Shown here one piece after another: positions 2,214 to 40,385 of a stretch of 64,000 nucleotides of DNA. Each line of letters starts with the position of its first letter. Within the stretch, counting starts at the first letter, position 1. The translations under genes were made by a program, and so were the position numbers. Below the pieces are notes generated by a model that did no database searches, had not been told where the DNA came from, and saw only the letters and a program-made list of their open reading frames with translations. Source of the stretch: an uncultured delta proteobacterium (lineage in GTDB: Bacteria; Desulfobacterota; Binatia; UBA9968); contig CAWDPO010000010.1 in the NCBI GenBank assembly GCA_963804165.1, positions 64,001 to 128,000 of the forward strand, read 5' to 3'.

Positions 2214-3206
2214 ATGCGATTGAAAGTGCCGATCGTTCTGCCATTGCTCTTGCTGACTCTGCTTCTGCCGGAAGCTGCGCTGGCGCAAACGCTTAAAGTT
2301 CCCTACGTCTCGATCTCCGGATTTCAAGCGCCGCTTTATCTCGGCGAGCGCGCCGGTCTGTTCAAGAAGAACCAACTCGAAGCGCAGCTTATCTACATGC
2401 CCGGCGGTTCTTTGATCGTCCAGACTTTGCTTTCCGGCGACGTCGGCGTCGCCAGCCTCGCGCCACCGTCGGCCGTGGCAGCGTGGGTGAAAGGCGCCGA
2501 GCTGGCTCTGGTCGCGGGCGGCATCGAGCGCGCGCTCAACGTGCTGATGGTCAACCCGAAGATCAAAAAACCCGACGACCTCAAAGGCAAACGGGTCGCG
2601 ATCAGCCGCTTCGGCTCGCTCTCCGATGTATCGCTCCGTGACGCTCTGGCGTTTTACAAACTACGGGCGACCCAAGATGTCCAGGTTGCCCAATTGGGCG
2701 GCCTCGGCGAGCGCATGACCGCGCTCACGTCCGGCGTCGTCGACGGCGCTATTTTGAATGTCGATCAAGTGTTTCAGGCAGAGAAGTTGGGTTTTCAAGT
2801 CTTGATCGACTTGCGCAAGTTGCCACTGACCTATTCGACCCAAGGCATTGTCGTCAGCAAAGAATTCCTGCGCGTTCAGCGCTCTGCCGCGAAACGATTC
2901 TTGCGAGTTTATATTGAAGGCATCAAGATTTTTAAGACCGATAAAGAATTCTCGATGGATACTTTGGCTCGTTATATCAAAACCAGCGACCGAGACATTC
3001 TCTCGAAAACCTATGACGTTTATCGGGACGCCTGGGAGAGCGTGCCACTGGTCAGACGCGACGGTATCCAGCAAGCCTTGGACAGCGTTCCAGAAGCCAA
3101 AAACGCCAAGTTGAATCTTGATAACCTAATCGACAACTCTTTGATTCATGAGCTGGAAAAGGAAGGATTTCTCCGAGAGCTTTATCCCGAGGGCGCAAAA
3201 CGATGA
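2214..3206 (+). CDS. ABC transporter substrate-binding protein, NMT1/THI5/SsuA family
   Basis: GGAG RBS before ATG 2214; signal peptide; GLFKKNQLE, IKKPDDLKGKRVAISRFGS; paralog of 1013..2032. Confidence 0.85.
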   Translation: MRLKVPIVLPLLLLTLLLPEAALAQTLKVPYVSISGFQAPLYLGERAGLFKKNQLEAQLIYMPGGSLIVQTLLSGDVGVASLAPPSAVAAWVKGAELALVAGGIERALNVLMVNPKIKKPDDLKGKRVAISRFGSLSDVSLRDALAFYKLRATQDVQVAQLGGLGERMTALTSGVVDGAILNVDQVFQAEKLGFQVLIDLRKLPLTYSTQGIVVSKEFLRVQRSAAKRFLRVYIEGIKIFKTDKEFSMDTLARYIKTSDRDILSKTYDVYRDAWESVPLVRRDGIQQALDSVPEAKNAKLNLDNLIDNSLIHELEKEGFLRELYPEGAKR

Positions 3207-3342
3207 GTGGAGCGAAGCCCAACAGAAGTTTCATGGTCAGGTCGCGCTCCGAGTTGGAGCGTTCGACAGGCTCTTGCGCCGGAAAGCTAAGATAAGTAAT
3301 TTTAATGCCAGAGGTGCGATTCACCGCGTTTCAGGAGTGAAC

Positions 3343-4179
3343 ATGCTAAAAACCACAGGCCTCATTGCCGGTCATTACGAGTGCCGCTCGCTTGCCGACA
3401 CTTTGCCGGTTTTTACCGATCTCGTGGCCATGGAAGTCATCGAGCGCAAGCCGGGTGAAGCGACGCTGAAGCATCCGAACACCGATTGGCGCTTGATTGT
3501 CCACGAAGGCGGGCCGAACGCGCCGGAAAAAGCCTTCGATAATCACTACGGCTTTCGGGTCGGCACGCACGAGGAAGTCGAGGCCGCCTGGAAATACGTC
3601 GAGGCTCACAAAGATAAATACCGGCTGACTAAAATCACCAAACCGCAGAGCGCGCACTTCGCCTACTCGATTTATTTCAACGAGCCCGGCGGCAACACCC
3701 TGGAGATCGAATACTACAATCCCGGCGGCGCGCTGCACGGCCGCTCGCACACCGCCGGTCACTGGGACTCTCCGCTCACCAGCGACCGCTTTCCCGGACG
3801 CGGTTATCTGCCGCAAGCTTTTACCCACGGAACCTTGCAATGTGACAACGTCGAGCGCAGCCGGCGTTTTTACGTCGAGGTTCTGGGATTGGAGATCGCG
3901 GCGGGTTTCAATACGGCGCAATACATCAAACACCCTTCGACGCCGTGGTACATCGTCGTGTTGCAGCGAACTCCACGGCAATACCTGGCTCCGGTGAACC
4001 GCTTCACGCTGCAGATGGCATCGACGGCGGATGTCGAACAAGCCCACCGCGAGTTTGCTGCCAATGGCAAAGAGATCGGCATCGCCGATCTCGGCAGGCT
4101 CGGAAGCACCGACGGCAGGGCGAATTTTATATTCAGCGACCTGGATAAAAACTGGTGGGAGCTGACGAGCGGGGCGTAA
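3343..4179 (+). CDS. Two-domain VOC (glyoxalase/bleomycin resistance/dioxygenase) family protein
   Basis: GGAG RBS before ATG 3343; NHYGF..YFNEPGGNTLEIE and THGTL..FYVEVLGLE..FSDLDKNWWEL motifs. Confidence 0.75.
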   Translation: MLKTTGLIAGHYECRSLADTLPVFTDLVAMEVIERKPGEATLKHPNTDWRLIVHEGGPNAPEKAFDNHYGFRVGTHEEVEAAWKYVEAHKDKYRLTKITKPQSAHFAYSIYFNEPGGNTLEIEYYNPGGALHGRSHTAGHWDSPLTSDRFPGRGYLPQAFTHGTLQCDNVERSRRFYVEVLGLEIAAGFNTAQYIKHPSTPWYIVVLQRTPRQYLAPVNRFTLQMASTADVEQAHREFAANGKEIGIADLGRLGSTDGRANFIFSDLDKNWWELTSGA

Positions 4180-4221: not shown

Positions 4222-4536
4222 CTACGTCATTCGCAACAAGATAATCCCCAGCACGACGAGCGCGACGCCGCAAAATATTTTCACGGTCACCGGTTCAGCG
4301 AAAATCACGCTCCCGGCAGCCACGGCCAGGAGCGCCTCCAACCCCAGGACCACCACGTAGCTCGGCCCCAGCGCTTCGTGTTTCATCGCCCATGCTTGAA
4401 CTAACGCGCCGGCGCTGAAAAGTGTCACGAGCCCAAGCGTAGGCAGCAATCGCGTCAATCCTTGGGAATATTTCATGAACGTGCCGCCGGCCACGTACAG
4501 CGCGGCCGCGACGGCATAGAATGCGATCATCTTCAT
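4222..4536 (-). CDS. SMR/DMT family small multidrug-type membrane transporter
   Basis: 104 aa, four hydrophobic helices; MKYSQGLTRLLP and FAEPVT..G..LVVLGIILL typical of SMR. Confidence 0.75.
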   Translation of the reverse strand: MKMIAFYAVAAALYVAGGTFMKYSQGLTRLLPTLGLVTLFSAGALVQAWAMKHEALGPSYVVVLGLEALLAVAAGSVIFAEPVTVKIFCGVALVVLGIILLRMT

Positions 4537-4566
4537 ATTCCGAGTTTACTCCCTGTTATAGGCACT

Positions 4567-4602
4567 AAAAAAAAGGCCCAACCTGGATCACAGATCGGGC
4601 CT
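4567..4602 (-). terminator. Intrinsic terminator after cytochrome c gene
   Basis: Minus strand AGGCCCGATCTG-loop-CAGGTTGGGCCT followed by a T run. Confidence 0.7.
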
Positions 4603-4637
4603 TCTCTTATAGGCGCGTGATGCGTCTTGCTAATCGG

Positions 4638-4994
4638 TCAGTCGAATTTCAGTAACGGAATATCCTTTGCCGCCGCTGACGGCTTGACCGTTAAGAGATA
4701 CGCGTACATATCCGCCAACTCCTGATCGCTGACAAAATCTTTTCGATAAGCCGGCATATCTTGGCGCGGCGTGCGCACCTGAAGGGCGAAGGCCGGGTAC
4801 GCAAGCATTCCCGGCGTTAGTTTCGGTCCGACACCGCGGTCGGCGCCTTGACCGATAGTACCGTGACAGGTGTAGCACATGTATTTCATATAGCTCTGGT
4901 GGCCGCGCTGAGCCGAGCCCGCTGGCGGCGGCTCTTGTGATAACACCGGAGCCGCGACCAACGTTATCAAAACGGTTAGAAAAACAATCCGCAT
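4638..4994 (-). CDS. Monoheme class I cytochrome c
   Basis: Signal peptide MRIVFLTVLITLVAAPVLS; CYTCH heme motif; GPKL, DMPAY (axial Met), SDQELADMYAYL. Confidence 0.85.
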   Translation of the reverse strand: MRIVFLTVLITLVAAPVLSQEPPPAGSAQRGHQSYMKYMCYTCHGTIGQGADRGVGPKLTPGMLAYPAFALQVRTPRQDMPAYRKDFVSDQELADMYAYLLTVKPSAAAKDIPLLKFD

Positions 4995-5007
4995 CGTGAC
5001 TCCTCTC

Positions 5008-6897
5008 TCATCGTCCTTGGGAGACGACATCGATTAGCGCCGGCTCACCGCGCTTGACCACTGCAAGCGCGCGAGAGATTGCCGGACCCATGGCGGCGGG
5101 ATCGGTGATCGGACCGTCTCCATATACACCCATGGATTGCGCCAGTTTGGCAAAATCGACATTGGGATTCTCGATGGTCGTGCCGATGGCCGCGCTATCC
5201 ATACGACGGTTGTGCAACGCGGCCATTTTTTGCAGGTGCATGACTTCCTGGTGATAAGCGCGATTATTATGCACGATCATCAGCATCGGAATTTTGTGGT
5301 GCGCCGCGGTCCAGAGCGCGCCCGGCGCATACATCAAGTCGCCATCGCCTTCGATCGAAACAGTCAAAATACCCTTGTCCCGGTTGGCGAGTGCTGCTCC
5401 GACGGCGGCACCGCTACCGTAGCCTTGACCGGCGCCGCCGGAGCCGCCGATAAAATTATGATACTCGGTAGCCGGCCACAGATTTCGGTTCCACTGCACG
5501 CTGGAAACTGCGAGACACCACTTGTCATTCTTGATCGCGTTGTAGAGCACCGCCGAAAGCCGCGCCGTGCTGCATGGGCTCGCATCCCAACCGACACTGG
5601 CTGCCGAGCGCGCGCGCTCTTTCATCCGGCCGTAGTCTTCGCGCAGCTTCGTCGCGCGATCGGCGATTGTCGCGCGCTGCGCCATACCGCTGGCCTTCTT
5701 GACCGCCTCGATCAGTGCCGGCAGCGTCGCCTGGGCATCGCCAGAGATCGGCAGATCGGACGGCATAAAGCGCTGCATGTCCTGATAGTTCGATTTCGTC
5801 AGCGTGTCGCCGAGCGATATGTGAATAACCTTGACATCGGGTTTAGCCAGGCGGCGATATTCATGGTGCGGGTCGCTGACGGTATTAAATTGGCCCCAGG
5901 GATCGGCAACTTCAAGCAAGAGGGCAACATCGGCTTGGCCGACCAAGGAGCGGCGATCGCCACTGCGACAGAGAAAATGGTTCATGGGAAAATTCATGCG
6001 CCCGCCAATATCAACGACCGGCGCATTCAATGCCTCGGCCAGCTCGACCAGGCGCTTCATGCCTTCTTGGGAGCGACAAGCCCGGTCCGCCAAGATCACC
6101 GGATTTTGCGCCGCCACCAGCATCTTGGCCGCTTCTGAAACTGCGCCGCTGTCGCCTTGGGGCGGAATCGAAAGCGTGAGCTTGGGAATGGTCAGTTTCT
6201 TTTCCTCGTAGATTGATCCTTCGGCCAACACGCCGTCCGCGGTGATCAACACTGGACCCATCGGCACGGTCGTGGCGATCTTGTAGCCACGAATGACCGA
6301 CTCGGCAAAGTGCTGCAGCGATAATGGCTGATCGTCCCACTTGGTAAAGTCACGGAGCAACGCCGCTGGATCCTGCACACAGTGGTACCACTCGACGCCG
6401 GGCCGGCGTTTAGCTGCATCGAGAAAATTGCCGGCAAACATCATGATCGGCACCCGATCGCACCAGGCGTTGTATACCGCCATCGCCGCATGCTGCAGTC
6501 CGACCGTGCCATGCGCCATCATGCCCATCGGCTTGCCTGCTGCCTTGGCGTATCCTTGAGCCATGCCGACCGAGGTCTCTTCGTGCATGCAGGTTAAAAA
6601 CTCGGGCTTTTTATTGCCACCGTAGTTGATGATGGATTCCTGTAGGCTGCGAAAGCTCGACCCCGGATTGGACGCGACGTACTCGATGCCAGTGGCTTTG
6701 ATCACGTCGACCATAAAGTCAGAGCCGGGCCGGCTGATGATCTTATCTCGACTTGGCGCGTTCTCTTTGCCGTCAGAGTTTGACTCGGCGGCCTGTGCCG
6801 GTGTGTTTGCCGCCGCCACTTGTGTCCCGATAACCGCCGCTGCGGTAGCCGCGGCTCCTTTCAGAAACGCACGACGATCAAAAGCGTCTTTGCCCAT
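5008..6897 (-). CDS. Thiamine pyrophosphate-dependent enzyme (ALS/benzoylformate decarboxylase/POX family) with Tat signal peptide
   Basis: DRRAFLKG twin-Arg signal; NPGSSF, HEE catalytic Glu, GDGDLMY...HNN ThDP-binding motif. Confidence 0.85.
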   Translation of the reverse strand: MGKDAFDRRAFLKGAAATAAAVIGTQVAAANTPAQAAESNSDGKENAPSRDKIISRPGSDFMVDVIKATGIEYVASNPGSSFRSLQESIINYGGNKKPEFLTCMHEETSVGMAQGYAKAAGKPMGMMAHGTVGLQHAAMAVYNAWCDRVPIMMFAGNFLDAAKRRPGVEWYHCVQDPAALLRDFTKWDDQPLSLQHFAESVIRGYKIATTVPMGPVLITADGVLAEGSIYEEKKLTIPKLTLSIPPQGDSGAVSEAAKMLVAAQNPVILADRACRSQEGMKRLVELAEALNAPVVDIGGRMNFPMNHFLCRSGDRRSLVGQADVALLLEVADPWGQFNTVSDPHHEYRRLAKPDVKVIHISLGDTLTKSNYQDMQRFMPSDLPISGDAQATLPALIEAVKKASGMAQRATIADRATKLREDYGRMKERARSAASVGWDASPCSTARLSAVLYNAIKNDKWCLAVSSVQWNRNLWPATEYHNFIGGSGGAGQGYGSGAAVGAALANRDKGILTVSIEGDGDLMYAPGALWTAAHHKIPMLMIVHNNRAYHQEVMHLQKMAALHNRRMDSAAIGTTIENPNVDFAKLAQSMGVYGDGPITDPAAMGPAISRALAVVKRGEPALIDVVSQGR

Positions 6898-10074: not shown

Positions 10075-12088
<2,014 letters not shown>

Positions 12089-33322: not shown

Positions 33323-33524
33323 GTTGAAGAAGATCTCCTCTGATTAGCAGAGACCCTAGAGAGCCACAAGGCGATCAAGAACTCGGCGCAAAAAGACGCG
33401 TCGGCAAAAAATCTCCACGGCGTCCATTGCCCAGGCCTCGATTGAAATAAGGCTGCGCTGCATGAAAGGCGCAATGATTAAGTTGTGTTTTGTCCGGGCT
33501 GCGCTTATCCTATGCAAGCGAGTT

Positions 33525-34367
33525 ATGAAGTCTTCTCGTTTGGCGGTCGCGCTCCTGTTCATGGCGGCCTGCGCGACCTTAGAGTCGCAAAGCGATTTCT
33601 TGACCGGGCGACGCGCGTTATTGCGCGGCGAGCCTGATAACGCGCTCTCTGCCTTCGATCGAGTCGCACAGAGTAATGCCAGCTTTGTTGCCGGTTCGGT
33701 GTCGCCAAGACGGAGCATTTGGACTTATATCGGGCGCGCGCACTACAATTCCGGCAGATACGCTGAAGCCAAGGCTGCGTTTGAAAAAGCCCTGTCCCAA
33801 CTAAGCGACGATCATGTCGCAAGATTATATCTCGGCTTGACGCTCCTGCATCCACCCGCTCCGCGCGCGCCGACCAAAGCTTTCAGCTTGCAAGAAGTGA
33901 CTTACGCTCTGCGCGAAGGCGTCGAGCCCAAGAGAGTCGCAACGTTGGCACGCGAGCGCGGCGTCGCGTTTGATTTAACTAAAGAAACCGAAAGCCAATT
34001 GCAAACCGTCGGCGCCGACCAACTACTCCTGAGCGAGCTCAGAAACATTCGGGCGCAGAGTGCCAAACAAAACCAGACAGGCGAAAACCAGAGGGCTCAA
34101 GCCGGCAAAGAACTGACCGCCGCACTGACGGGGTTGCGCGATTGGCTCGACTATACGGTTGCGTACACGCCGCAGGGAAAGTTCTGGGATCCGTCGGAGC
34201 AGATTCGCAAGCAGATCGCGCTCTCTCTCAAGCTGGTCGGGGCTCAGCCGACAGATTGGGTGAGCCTGATTTCAAATGCCGAATCGGTCGGTTCCATGCT
34301 CGAAGAAGAAAACGATCGGGCGCGCCGCGATGAATCCGCGGAACGCGAACGGCAGTTAAGACGATAG
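33525..34367 (+). CDS. Tetratricopeptide-repeat lipoprotein
   Basis: Lipobox-like FMAAC; TPR-like WTYIGRAHYNSGRYAEAKAAFEKAL..ARLYLG. Confidence 0.7.
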   Translation: MKSSRLAVALLFMAACATLESQSDFLTGRRALLRGEPDNALSAFDRVAQSNASFVAGSVSPRRSIWTYIGRAHYNSGRYAEAKAAFEKALSQLSDDHVARLYLGLTLLHPPAPRAPTKAFSLQEVTYALREGVEPKRVATLARERGVAFDLTKETESQLQTVGADQLLLSELRNIRAQSAKQNQTGENQRAQAGKELTAALTGLRDWLDYTVAYTPQGKFWDPSEQIRKQIALSLKLVGAQPTDWVSLISNAESVGSMLEEENDRARRDESAERERQLRR

Positions 34368-34393
34368 CCCGATTTGCCTGCGGCGGCGATGGA

Positions 34394-35845
34394 TCAACAA
34401 TCGAGCTTGCTGCCCAAGGCCTTCTCGGCATTGCAAGCCCGTCTCGTCTGATCGATCTCTTTGCGAATAACCTCATCCAGACCGGCGATGGCTTTAGCTT
34501 TTTCTAATTCCGCCAGGGCGGCAGCGTAGTTTCCTTGCTCGCGCAACGATTCAGCGCGATTGATGTAGGCCGCGATTCGCGCTTTCGTTTGCTCCGTCAC
34601 AGCCGGCGGAGGGACAGAATTTGGTTCATGAGTTTTCTCTGGCTTGGTTTGCGGTTGGGTGGTCTTTTGGGACTCTTTGATCAATAACGTAAGCGGGGAG
34701 CTGCGAAGATTTCCGGCACGGGCGACAATTTCAACCTTTCCCGGTCGCAGCGCGACCAGTTCGCCGTCGGCATTTACCGACGCCACCGCGTGATCACTAA
34801 GCTGCCACTCGAATCCGTCGGACAGAAACTTCTCAGCATTATCGGAGTATCGCCCGCTCACGCGTATCGAGACCTTCTGTTTTGTAAATAACTCTCTGTT
34901 GCTCGAGCTGAGGCGTAAAGCGACCAACTTTATCGGTACGACGGATTTGGGCGGCGGCTCGACAGCCTTCACGCTGAGACTCCACTGAGAACTCGCAACG
35001 TTGCCAACCTTGGCTAAAATAACCGTTGTCCCGGCTTTCAACGCTCTCACTTCACCTGCTTCGCTGATCGTCGCCACGCCGGGGGCGCTGCTCGACCAAT
35101 CTATCCCTTCTATAATGTCATGCTGCTTGCCATCTGAATAACTTGCCGTCACTACTAATTTTGCCGTTTCCGACGGTTTCAGTTCCTTCTTATCACCTCG
35201 AATCACAAGGCTGTTGATACTCGGAGCCGGAGCGATTTTCGCGCCGACTCCGTCGACCACGGGCGGCCGTGCCGCCTGTTCCTCTTCCCGCGGACTCGTC
35301 CATAATTGCCATGCAGCGATGAGCAAAACAGCAGCTACCCCGGCCAGCCCTAGTTTCAGCCAATGCGCGGCAAGCCATGGACTCTCAGGCAACCGTCTTT
35401 TAATTTTTTGCGACACCAGAAGATCGTCTGGCTGCACGGGTTTTTCGCGGGAGGTGCCCAAAATCGACTTGAGGTCGGCAAGGAATGTCTGCGCGGCTGG
35501 ATCGTCGATCGTACCGTCCCAATTTGCAAGGTCGGCCGCCTGAATGGCCCTGAACCCTATGGGGGGTTCGACTCGCTGTATTAAAACCGGAACAATTGTC
35601 TTGCCGAGTCGACGTGCCTCCTCAGCTTCTTCAGTTACCCACGGGCTCTCTACTGAGTCCTTCGACCAAAGAACAACCATGCAGCGCATGTCTTTCAGCG
35701 CGTCTTCGAGAACCGATCGCCAGGTGCGGCCTGCAGGGATACGCCGATCCCACCAGACCTGCCAGCCCGCCGATTCCAGAACCTGCGCCAGTCGAGCCGC
35801 AGATTCCCTGTTTTCGTTTGCGTAGCTGATGAAAATGTCGGCCAT
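34394..35845 (-). CDS. TIR domain - TM - two Big_2 Ig-like domains - TPR-like helix protein
   Basis: DIFISYA, VWWD, VVLWSKDSVESPWVTEE (TIR_2); hydrophobic helix; two repeats of the type WSSSAPGVATI..G.V.ALK.G. Confidence 0.85.
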   Translation of the reverse strand: MADIFISYANENRESAARLAQVLESAGWQVWWDRRIPAGRTWRSVLEDALKDMRCMVVLWSKDSVESPWVTEEAEEARRLGKTIVPVLIQRVEPPIGFRAIQAADLANWDGTIDDPAAQTFLADLKSILGTSREKPVQPDDLLVSQKIKRRLPESPWLAAHWLKLGLAGVAAVLLIAAWQLWTSPREEEQAARPPVVDGVGAKIAPAPSINSLVIRGDKKELKPSETAKLVVTASYSDGKQHDIIEGIDWSSSAPGVATISEAGEVRALKAGTTVILAKVGNVASSQWSLSVKAVEPPPKSVVPIKLVALRLSSSNRELFTKQKVSIRVSGRYSDNAEKFLSDGFEWQLSDHAVASVNADGELVALRPGKVEIVARAGNLRSSPLTLLIKESQKTTQPQTKPEKTHEPNSVPPPAVTEQTKARIAAYINRAESLREQGNYAAALAELEKAKAIAGLDEVIRKEIDQTRRACNAEKALGSKLDC

Positions 35846-37935: not shown

Positions 37936-37966
37936 CTTGAACGACTTGAACCAATAATCATTGAAC

Positions 37967-40385
37967 ATGACCATGCCCAATATTGCTGATTCACAAAAGA
38001 CGACGCATTCGGTTCGCGGCTACTGCGCGCTCTGCACGGCGCACTGCGCAACGGTCGCGACGGTTGAAGATGGCCGCGTGACGCAACTCGATCCAGATCA
38101 TGATCATCCCAACGGCGGGGTCATGTGTATCAAAGGCAAAGCCGCGCCTGAGCTCGTCTACAATCCCGATCGGCTCAATTACCCGCTCAAGCGCACCCGA
38201 CCCAAAGGTGATGCCGATCCCGGTTGGCAGAGAGTTAGTTGGAATGAAGCGCTTGACGATATCGCGCGGGAGACTGACAGCCATTCGCGAGCAGTACGGC
38301 GCCAAATCCATTGCGCTGGCGAAAGGCACCAAGAGCGGCACTTCCGTTGACGATGCTGAACGCTGGTTGGGACGGTTGCTTTATCTCATCGGCAGTCCAA
38401 ATTGGGTGTCGACCACGCACGTCTGCAACTGGCACAGGGATACCGGCTTCAGCTATACCTTCGGAACGATCCTTCCCAGGCCGGATTTCGCCCATAGTAA
38501 AACCTTTCTCCTATGGGGCCATAACCCGAGCGCCACCTCGTTGATCGCGGCTCACGACATCGTTGCAGCCAGGGCCCGCGGGATGAAGACCGTCGTCGTC
38601 GATCCCCGCCGGGTCGGCATCGGCGCCAACGCCGACATGCTGCTGCAAGTGCGGCCCGGCGCGGACGGCGCTTTGGCGCTGGCGCTGATCCACTGCTTGA
38701 TGGAAGAAGGCTGGTACGACGCCACCTTCGCTCGTCAGTGGACCAACGGAATCTTTCTGCTGAATTATACGACCGGACAAATCGTCACCGAAGCCGATCT
38801 GACGACGGGCGGGAGTTCGAACCATTTTGCGGTGTGGGATGAAAACAGGAATCAAGTCGCACTATGGGATCCGACGGCGGGCGGATATGACGCCGACGGA
38901 GTGCAGCCCGCTCTTTTCGGCATTCGGTCGTTGAAGGCAAAAAACGGAAAGGAAATTTCCTGCAAGCCGGTCTTCGAGCGATTGGGCGAGCTCGCATCCG
39001 CCTACGCGCCTGAAAAATCCGAAAAGATCACCTGGGTGGCGGCCGACAAAGTCTGGCAGACCGCCCTGCTGCTCGCGCATAACCGGCCGGTCAACATGTA
39101 TATGTGGAACGGCGTCGGCCAGCACACCAACGCCACTCAGACGAGCCGCGCCATCGCGACTCTGTACGCGCTGCTCGGCGATTTCGACCGCCAAGGCGGC
39201 AATGTAATTTTCCCGAAGGTGCCGCTCAACGAGGTCGACGGCAAGGAATTTTTGCCCAAAGAAACCGCGGCGCTCCGTATTGGCCGCGAACGTAAACCCC
39301 TCGGGCCTCCGGCTTCGCCCGGTAACTGCGCAGCCTACGACATCTATACGGCGATTCTTGAGAAGCACCCCTATCCGATCCAAGCGCTTTTGAATTTCGG
39401 CTCCAACACGGTCATGTCTTCCGGTGACTCGCGCGCCGGCCGCAAGGCGCTCTGCGCTTTGGAGTTCGGCGTCGCCGTGGAGCTGTTTATGACGCCGACA
39501 GCGGAACTTTGCGACTACGTCTTGCCCGCCACTAGTTTCCTCGAAATGGCCAGCCTCGCAACCGGCTTCGAGCACCGCGCCGAGGCCAAGACCCATCTTC
39601 AATATCGCGCTGCCGTGGTGGAACCCATTGCCGAGCGGCGCTCGGACACCTGGATCATCTTCCAATTGGCTGAGCGGCTCGGTCTCGGTGACCAGTTCTG
39701 GCACGGCGACATCGAGGCCAGTTACGCCTACGAGCTGACGCCGTCAGGAATTACGCTGGAGCAGCTGAAAAATTCTCCTGGTGGCATCTCCAGGCCCGCC
39801 GCGCCGATCTATGAAAAGCACGCCAAACCAAACAAAGACGGCTCACGGCGCGGCTTTGCCACGCCGACCAAGAAAGTCGAGCTCTACTGTCACAGGTTCG
39901 CCGCCCACGGCTACCCGGCGCTGCCGGAATATGTCGAGCCGGCTATGAGCCCGATCAGCAAGCCGGAACATCGCTGCCGAATTCCCGCTTGTGCTCACCA
40001 ACGCTAAGTTCACCACCTATCGTGCATAGCCAACAGCGTGCGCTGCCCGAGCCTTGCGCAAAGCGTCGCCCGAACCGAGCGCCGATATTCATCCCGAGAC
40101 CGCGCGCCGTTACGGCGTGAAAAACAAAGAAATGGATGGTCGTGGAAAGCCCGCGTGGCGCGATCAAGAGTCAAGGCCCGAGTCACGACAAATATCGTTC
40201 CCGGCGTCGTCTGTTGCCAGCATGGCTGGTGGCAGGAGTGCAAGGAGATGGAGCTGCCCGGTTACAATCCCTACGAATCGAGCGGCGCCAATCCCGGTAC
40301 ACTGATCGGCACCGACCTCGCCGATCCGATGAGCGGATCCCTGCCGCATCGTTCTTATCTCTGTCGCGTTCGTGCGGCTGAATAA
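37967..40385 (+). pseudogene. Molybdopterin oxidoreductase (DMSO reductase family, acetylene-hydratase-like), several frameshifts (likely assembly errors)
   Basis: CALCTAHC..C 4Fe-4S motif, RLNYPLKR, WGHNP, VVDPR, RPGADGALAL, TPTAELCDYVLPA, GFATPTKKVE, HPETA; shifts near 38270 and 39960-40170. Confidence 0.8.

Follow-up and report, generated by a model that had tools for sequence, protein, structure and literature searches.

A predicted TIR receptor and its convergent lipoprotein gene as a candidate modular envelope sensor in an uncultured soil bacterium of the Binatia

Bacterial enzymes with a Toll/interleukin-1 receptor (TIR) domain, among them AbTir, TIR-SAVED, TIR-APAZ/SPARTA and ThsB, are soluble and act under cytoplasmic signals (cyclic nucleotides, guide RNA with its target, phage proteins). 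Assayed bacterial TIRs that retain the glutamate of the W-x-x-x-E motif are generally NAD+-cleaving enzymes, and TIR NADases require self-association. The interleukin-1 and Toll-like receptors of animals (IL-1R/TLR) combine an ectodomain outside the cell (Ig-like or other), one transmembrane (TM) helix and a TIR domain inside with a second chain as co-receptor; most animal receptor TIRs act as scaffolds. To our knowledge, all bacterial TIR proteins studied to date are controlled from inside the cell. Here, we analyse a pair of convergent genes, encoding a putative TIR receptor and a putative lipoprotein, from an uncultured delta proteobacterium (Desulfobacterota; Binatia; UBA9968; assembly GCA_963804165.1). 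The genes lie in a window of 64,000 nucleotides (contig CAWDPO010000010.1, positions 64,001–128,000 of the forward strand) and, judging from related loci, encode what is probably a modular envelope sensor with swappable outputs (TIR, kinase, CHAT).

Two further kinds of described system come close to this locus. [quoted passage not shown] As predicted for the receptor described here, PpkA in this threonine phosphorylation pathway of the H1 type VI secretion system (H1-T6SS) is a receptor that crosses the inner membrane once; a partner anchored by a lipoprotein engages its periplasmic part, and its activation is thought to dimerise a cytoplasmic enzyme domain (PMC13713981). Caspase/CHAT-type proteins fused to TM helices and extracellular sensors, CHASE2 for example (Kaur et al. 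2021, eLife, PMC8195603), likewise place a death- or immune-type effector domain under an extracytoplasmic sensor through TM helices; their sensor module is a different one, and a TIR head and a lipoprotein partner both go unmentioned in the accessible text of that survey. No prokaryotic TIR–TM–Ig receptor is described in the accessible portions of a TIR survey (PMC7075850) or of two conflict-system surveys (PMC7159879, PMC8195603), and we found no description of such a receptor, or of this sensor unit, in the literature outside subscription journals and supplementary files. The pair extends two known kinds of system, bacterial TIR enzymes and lipoprotein-assisted receptor kinases.

The architecture of the receptor (Table 1) is supported by its open reading frame (ORF), Pfam matches, an AlphaFold2 model and more than 100 full-length homologues. 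TIR_2 (PF13676) matched at residues 4–111 (E = 1.1e-26; 94.1 bits, cut-off 28) and Big_2 (PF02368) matched over two stretches (E = 1.3e-13; 51.1 bits, cut-off 22.8), which assigns the domains to these families. A hydropathy scan found a sole hydrophobic segment (residues ~157–183), with KIKRR on its N-terminal side and an acidic stretch on its C-terminal side. The AlphaFold2 model, built on 52 homologues with a mean predicted local distance difference test (pLDDT) score of 78.6, lays out in turn the TIR domain, a disordered juxtamembrane tether of ~30 residues, the TM helix, two Ig beta-sandwiches (block pLDDT mostly >90) and helices at residues 418–476, with domain limits as in Table 1. An earlier note on this DNA, made by reading the sequence without database searches, had named a TIR domain with the glutamate of a WVxxE motif, one TM helix and two Big_2 repeats. 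All of these were recovered by Pfam, hydropathy or AlphaFold2, including the TM helix and Ig fold on whose prediction the note had in part staked its reading.

Under the positive-inside rule, the charges flanking the TM helix point to an N-in/C-out orientation, which would place the TIR domain in the cytoplasm and the remainder outside and make the receptor a type II, single-pass inner-membrane protein with its Ig domains facing outwards. The likeness to animal IL-1R drawn by the note holds as an analogy of architecture. The ‘inverted topology’ it described amounts to reversed chain order alone, with TIR at the N-terminus, and the Ig domains are of the bacterial Big_2 type, their best structural matches in Foldseek being Leptospira LigA (8gyr, E = 7.8e-18) and S-layer proteins. 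The animal-type TIR model PF01582 scored 20.1 bits, below its cut-off of 21.3, and the window protein, unlike the animal receptors, retains the catalytic glutamate. Convergence of architecture is the simplest reading of the resemblance.

The note had also described a TPR-like C-terminus with two cysteines. The cysteines stand: C471 and C483 are invariant in 52/52 homologues, together with R430, G438 and Y440, and C55 is the only further cysteine of the receptor. The TPR likeness is loose, as the best Pfam match to this region (TPR_2 at residues 425–453) reached 18.1 bits against a cut-off of 27. The C-terminus is better treated as a distinct conserved Cys–Cys helical module than as a bona fide TPR; its three helices are predicted to be periplasmic and capable of forming a disulfide.

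Both genes are, on comparative sequence grounds, real and not chance ORFs: there are more than 100 full-length homologues at 51–87% identity and dN/dS is below 1 in every domain. A protein search with the receptor gave 566 matches at E ≤ 1e-3 among 8000 scored candidates; the best 120 of these are nearly all full-length, 51–87% identical and mostly 470–540 aa long. A single-protein search of genome contigs returned one weak, TIR-only match, in a Pirellulales metagenome-assembled genome. Rates were estimated by the Nei–Gojobori method on up to 81 gene pairs with a whole-gene dS between 0.1 and 1. All receptor domains are under purifying selection, the gene is functional and the TIR head is its most constrained part, whereas its linkers vary freely (Table 1).

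The glutamate of the AbTir W-x-x-x-E motif (chains 7uwg and 8g83) aligns with E73 of the receptor, its putative catalytic residue. E72 and E73 are invariant in all 52 aligned homologues, and W69 and V70 also lie within a near-invariant TIR domain. Foldseek matched the domain to AbTir with 3AD (7uxu; TMt 0.72) and to the TIR domain of the Hydra Toll-related receptor TRR-2 (4w8g; TMt 0.84), while the top TIR matches in PADLOC were the TIR parts of SAVED_TIR (1.3e-12) and Aga_TIR (1.1e-10), with ThsB behind (2.3e-5). Fold, glutamate and these domain-level hidden Markov model (HMM) matches are shared with the bacterial NAD+-cleaving TIRs; unlike them, the window receptor is predicted to be anchored in the membrane, to sense outside the cytoplasm and to have a lipoprotein as partner, and it fits none of their system-level definitions. 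Conservation of the glutamate and of the fold suggests that the TIR domain may cleave NAD+ at E73 once receptors cluster.

The genome of the window, denoted G000, holds 10 TIR_2 loci above the Pfam cut-off, in ORFs of 230–562 aa. One locus (L134, G000:C26:10000-26000) encodes two near-identical TIR–TM proteins (4240-5391 (-), 383 aa, and 10805-11734 (-), 309 aa) in which a Pro/Ala-rich linker is followed by a different extracytoplasmic domain, discoidin/F5_F8-like by eye. Similar proteins of 330–390 aa match receptor residues 1–209 in most genomes of the genus, and proteins of this type suggest a small repertoire of TIR receptors with differing sensors.

The partner gene lies in an ORF of 301 aa (33462..34367, (+)), the likely start of which, at 33525, gives MKSSRLAVALLFMAAC. 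In all 15 full-length orthologues examined, a lipobox cysteine follows the hydrophobic stretch, which marks the product as a predicted lipoprotein. It matches TPR_2 in Pfam (E = 8.3e-9), and its AlphaFold2 model (mean pLDDT 88.3) is nearly all-helical; a fold search returned generic TPR matches alone, the best being BamD (E = 7.5e-4, TM-score 0.31–0.33). Short paralogues of ~220 aa align only to residues 8–108 and 186–277 and so are without the insert domain. This insert has no name in Pfam or the ESM Atlas, where the search returned the lipoprotein’s own unnamed cluster. As a solitary domain, the insert recurs in TM proteins encoded downstream of module-bearing kinases (L133, L021). At L021 the protein concerned (2243-3781 (-), 512 aa) consists of the insert domain followed by ~350 residues of Lys/Glu/Arg-rich repeats, and its gene lies directly downstream of one for a kinase receptor with the Cys–Cys module; the arrangement at L133 is similar. 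The short paralogues form a large family, with roughly 2–16 matches per genome (for example G000:C6:175292-175864 (-) and G000:C46:19421-19726 (-)).

The lipoprotein gene ends exactly 26 nt from the receptor gene on the opposite strand, as the earlier note had read it, and a neighbourhood survey of the kind it proposed found the linkage, which it had called speculative, to be conserved and well supported. In the genus, represented by G000 and 24 further genomes, 19 of 25 genomes, with G000 and the unpublished G005 included in the count, carry the two genes side by side in convergent orientation; five (G001, G007, G009, G021, G023), three of which are 95–98% complete, have neither gene, and G010 is ambiguous. 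Of 80 metagenome loci, 64 extend 600 nt or more beyond the receptor gene on its downstream side and could be assessed, and the lipoprotein is present at 63 of them. Convergent orientation holds for all 69 metagenome lipoprotein matches, and the median gap is estimated at ~31 nt. In six loci the pair occurs in a second genomic context, which lacks the FAD oxidoreductase gene. No shared terminator was found in the 26-nt gap; the seven terminator-like sites of the region do not clearly exceed those of shuffled sequences (4.6 ± 2.2).

Pairs with other heads argue for the link and lend strong comparative support to the note’s reading of the protein as a transmembrane sensor, since in related genomes Ser/Thr kinases and a CHAT protease carry the same ectodomain. 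At locus L021 of G003, a 746-aa protein joins a Ser/Thr kinase at its N-terminus through a TM helix to two Big_2 domains and the Cys–Cys module, and its gene converges on that of a 287-aa lipoprotein paralogue. Convergent pairs with a kinase head occur in G003, G475, G474, G492 and G473, and G460 encodes a lipoprotein-paired receptor of 811 aa with a CHAT head and three Big_2 domains, a Trypco1 gene lying upstream. Identity to the window proteins is 31–37% for the kinase and CHAT ectodomains and 35–41% for their lipoproteins. Among 20 further loci, TIR-headed receptors converge on a lipoprotein in 10 (L114–L120, L130–L132), and L129 could not be assessed. Reuse of the ectodomain and lipoprotein with other heads is stronger evidence for the link than the synteny counts are.

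Searched with a 69-aa query, the C-terminal module is present in 39 of 90 genomes of family f1, spread over 12 of 23 genera. In a sample of 401 genomes over the phylum, four matched and the module was not convincingly found outside f1: the convincing matches are G000 and G331, both of that family, while G429 and G381 matched weakly (E = 2.8e-4 and 5.6e-4). The ORF in G429 lacks the Cys pattern and proved to be a generic TPR protein, and that in G381 has a similar score and ORF length, so that the true count is two, or three at most. When 1.84 billion representative proteins were queried with residues 296–483, those matching through the C-terminus bore the same three heads (TIR_2, Pkinase and CHAT). 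The search gave 6286 matches at E ≤ 1e-3, mostly giant Big_2 repeat proteins, from which 24 were chosen by C-terminal match or similar length; 10 of these were inspected, several being N-terminally truncated fragments, and three head types is thus a lower bound. We propose a family with the architecture [TIR, Pkinase or CHAT]–TM–Big_2(n)–Cys–Cys module plus a convergent, insert-bearing TPR lipoprotein, defined by the invariant pattern R...G.Y...C...C in the C-terminal module and by the insert domain in the lipoprotein; the window pair has both.

Several details of these relatives may be recorded here. The Trypco1 (PF19493) gene lies immediately 5′ of the CHAT-headed receptor gene (L122, 4479-4844 (+)); the Trypco1 domain was defined in a conflict-system survey (PMC7159879). 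L128 has a second CHAT gene (11160-12056 (-)) close to its kinase pair. G003 has a broken TIR receptor and is the sole genome of the genus with a kinase-headed pair.

The kinase-headed relatives bring the comparison back to PpkA. DotU/TssL–OmpA and PP2C genes adjoin four of the five kinase pairs, in three of these four together with ImpE, and in G003 and G473 the contig also carries the sheath gene TssC, at a distance of ~13 kb; DotU/TssL–OmpA, PP2C and ImpE are the gene set of T6SS post-translational control. The kinase-headed pairs of G003, G475, G474 and G473 accordingly combine the two PpkA/TagQR-type features, a kinase head and a T6SS context. The window receptor differs from PpkA in having TIR and not a kinase as its head and in an ectodomain of two Big_2 domains and a Cys–Cys helical module, where the periplasmic domain of PpkA is of the von Willebrand A type; the lipoproteins of the two systems are likened by description, not by sequence. 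The CHAT genome G460 has no TssC, and searches of G000, at 80.9% completeness, gave neither TssC nor DotU; a T6SS is thus not a fixed companion of the sensor unit.

Our preferred reading, to which we assign a probability of about 0.55, is that the pair forms a two-gene envelope sensor with a TIR output, mechanism included. A periplasmic or envelope cue would alter the contact between the receptor ectodomain and the TPR lipoprotein, which would act as periplasmic partner or co-sensor. Receptors would then be brought together, the ~30-residue juxtamembrane tether would permit their TIR domains to self-associate, and self-association would build the active site around E73. NAD+ would be cleaved, and so either depleted or made into an ADP-ribose (ADPR)-type product, and the state of the cell would shift, for example to growth arrest. 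Activation would proceed by receptor clustering, and the trigger, after the model of TagQ/TagR–PpkA, may be envelope damage.

Physical binding of the lipoprotein to the ectodomain would fit structural modelling of the complex, which gave ipSAE values of 0.56, 0.49 and 0.42 (median 0.49) against 0.01 for the best control and thereby offers weak support; the runs share at least 64% of contacts, with a partner pLDDT of at least 83. Of 157 solved complexes, 116 reached the ipSAE pass mark, as did two of 215 mismatched pairs; at ipSAE ≤0.60 those reaching it were only 18 of the 157 solved complexes and both of the passing mismatches.

We hold more tentatively a wider view, that bacteria of the family possess plug-and-play envelope receptors paralleling the logic of animal IL-1R/TLR, in which Ig domains and a lipoprotein co-receptor would report one class of envelope cue (damage, neighbour attack) and be wired to T6SS firing, CHAT proteolysis or TIR NAD+ cleavage. 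If the proposed sensor is real, it would be the first TIR receptor of transmembrane type to be described from prokaryotes; control of TIR domains from the outside in would not be an animal invention, and NAD+ cleavage could be coupled directly to envelope events. The sharing of one sensor with kinase and CHAT heads would offer a natural swap experiment, in which the cue could be found through the easiest output and then applied to TIR, and the pair would provide a defined, small two-component system for TIR activation by induced proximity.

A number of findings weigh against a two-gene envelope sensor. A single syntenic block (FAD oxidoreductase – TIR >< lipoprotein – MFS – DUF309 – Mfd), which runs through the genus and recurs in several further genera of its family, accounts for most TIR-type loci, so their adjacency is largely inherited and the pairing counts are not independent. 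Some receptors stand alone: L084 encodes a full-length receptor without a lipoprotein within 1978 nt downstream, L121 an Ig-less TIR receptor without an adjacent lipoprotein, and kinases bearing the module lack an adjacent lipoprotein at L125, L126 and L133, in two of three cases at L021 and for the second kinases of L127 and L128. The pair also decays in some genomes. The receptor is fragmented in G003 (G003:C3:119739-121174), interrupted by TGA in G011 (C114) and reduced to its C-terminal 184 aa in G020 (C74), and the lipoprotein gene is split or carries stops in G018 (C15) and G019 (C25). No VipB/TssC sheath or DotU gene was found in G000, at 80.9% completeness, and the T6SS analogy is for that reason not directly transferable to it. 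Domain-level estimates of dN/dS exceeded 1 in no domain; diversifying selection was not seen, and an arms race with phage or another antagonist was rejected on this ground. The complex prediction is a weak pass, and the enzymatic activity and binding of the receptor are predictions made from the genes.

Among the other explanations, it is unlikely that, within the same architecture and with the same lipoprotein partner, the TIR domain is a non-catalytic scaffold that recruits other TIR proteins, as in animal TLR/IL-1R. G000 does encode 10 TIR_2 loci, two further TIR–TM proteins among them, and conservation covers the whole TIR surface (mean identity 0.79, with 58 invariant positions within residues 1–125) and not the active site alone. 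A scaffold sits less well with the invariance of the catalytic glutamate and its surrounding motif, given that assayed bacterial TIRs keeping this residue generally cleave NAD+, and the locus has no linked gene for a TIR partner.

The earlier note had proposed phage contact as a possible cue, and a Thoeris-like defence sensor, in which such contact at the envelope would yield a cyclic-ADPR-type signal for an effector encoded elsewhere, strikes us as improbable too. The domain-level matches to ThsB and to the Thoeris type III TIR protein ThcB4 point that way, as does the presence or absence of the pair as a unit within the genus, a frequent habit of accessory defence genes. The ThcB4 match (NF058526), however, reached 39.6 bits against an NCBIfam cut-off of 220, and identity as a defence system was rejected because PADLOC and NCBIfam gave domain-level matches only, PADLOC none for the lipoprotein. 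None of the adjacent genes is ThsA-like or of the SIR2, Macro or SLOG kinds, no domain shows positive selection and the locus lies in a vertically inherited syntenic block, outside any mobile island or defence-island context, where genomes without the pair fill the slot between the MFS and FAD genes with metabolic genes. The note’s phage-contact role accordingly found no backing. Least probable is a non-signalling pair, whether a periplasm-spanning structural tether to an outer-membrane lipoprotein or a meaningless adjacency, since the frequency of Big_2 domains in structural surface proteins (with LigA and S-layer proteins as best Foldseek matches) and the origin of most adjacency counts in one inherited block are set against an ectodomain–lipoprotein unit that recurs with three enzymatic or signalling heads in different genomic contexts and a cytoplasmic TIR domain more constrained than a passive anchor would be expected to need.

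Table 1. Features of the receptor–lipoprotein pair in window coordinates, with the identity of receptor parts among 52 homologues and dN/dS from up to 81 gene pairs.
Feature	Position	Strand	Mean pairwise identity	Median dN/dS	Details and basis
Partner lipoprotein gene	33525..34367	(+)			280 aa from likely start; ORF, TPR_2, AlphaFold2
Lipoprotein signal peptide and lipobox (MKSSRLAVALLFMAAC)	33525..33572	(+)			Translation
Lipoprotein insert domain (FSLQEV...LLLSELRN), residues 120–174	33882..34046	(+)			Conserved block, alignment A4
Gap between convergent stop codons	34368..34393	(.)			26 nt
Receptor gene	34394..35845	(-)			483 aa; TIR – TM – Big_2 – Big_2 – C-terminal Cys–Cys helical module
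C-terminal three-helix module, invariant C471 and C483	34397..34594	(-)	0.68	0.16	Signature of sensor family
Predicted periplasmic Big_2 Ig-like domain 2 (Ig2), residues 307–390	34676..34927	(-)	0.56	0.17	Second Big_2 stretch, model
Predicted periplasmic Big_2 Ig-like domain 1 (Ig1), residues 210–292	34970..35218	(-)	0.53	0.24	Pfam, model, Foldseek
Single TM helix, residues 162–182	35300..35362	(-)			Hydropathy; helix in AlphaFold2 model
Linkers			0.19–0.41	0.46	dN/dS pooled with TM helix
Predicted cytoplasmic TIR domain, residues 1–130	35456..35845	(-)	0.79	0.09	TIR_2 HMM, Foldseek
Codon of E73, putative catalytic Glu of W69-V-T-E-E73	35627..35629	(-)			Translation, AbTir alignment

The neighbours of the pair in the window are MFS, DUF309, Mfd, FAD oxidoreductase and molybdopterin-type oxidoreductase genes. 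In three genomes without the pair (L027, L028 and L029, from G023, G021 and G009), the slot it would occupy holds, by eye, genes for a UbiD-like decarboxylase, an enoyl-CoA hydratase, an AMP ligase, an amidohydrolase and a solute-binding protein. Some pair-bearing genomes appear to hold part of this set (an extra ~3 kb at L016–L018 and L020), and the slot varies. The molybdopterin-type oxidoreductase gene of the window appears split (37961-40007 (+)) into overlapping frames at 37961-38350 (129 aa) and 38100-40007 (635 aa), which could reflect a frameshift, recoding or an error in the assembly.

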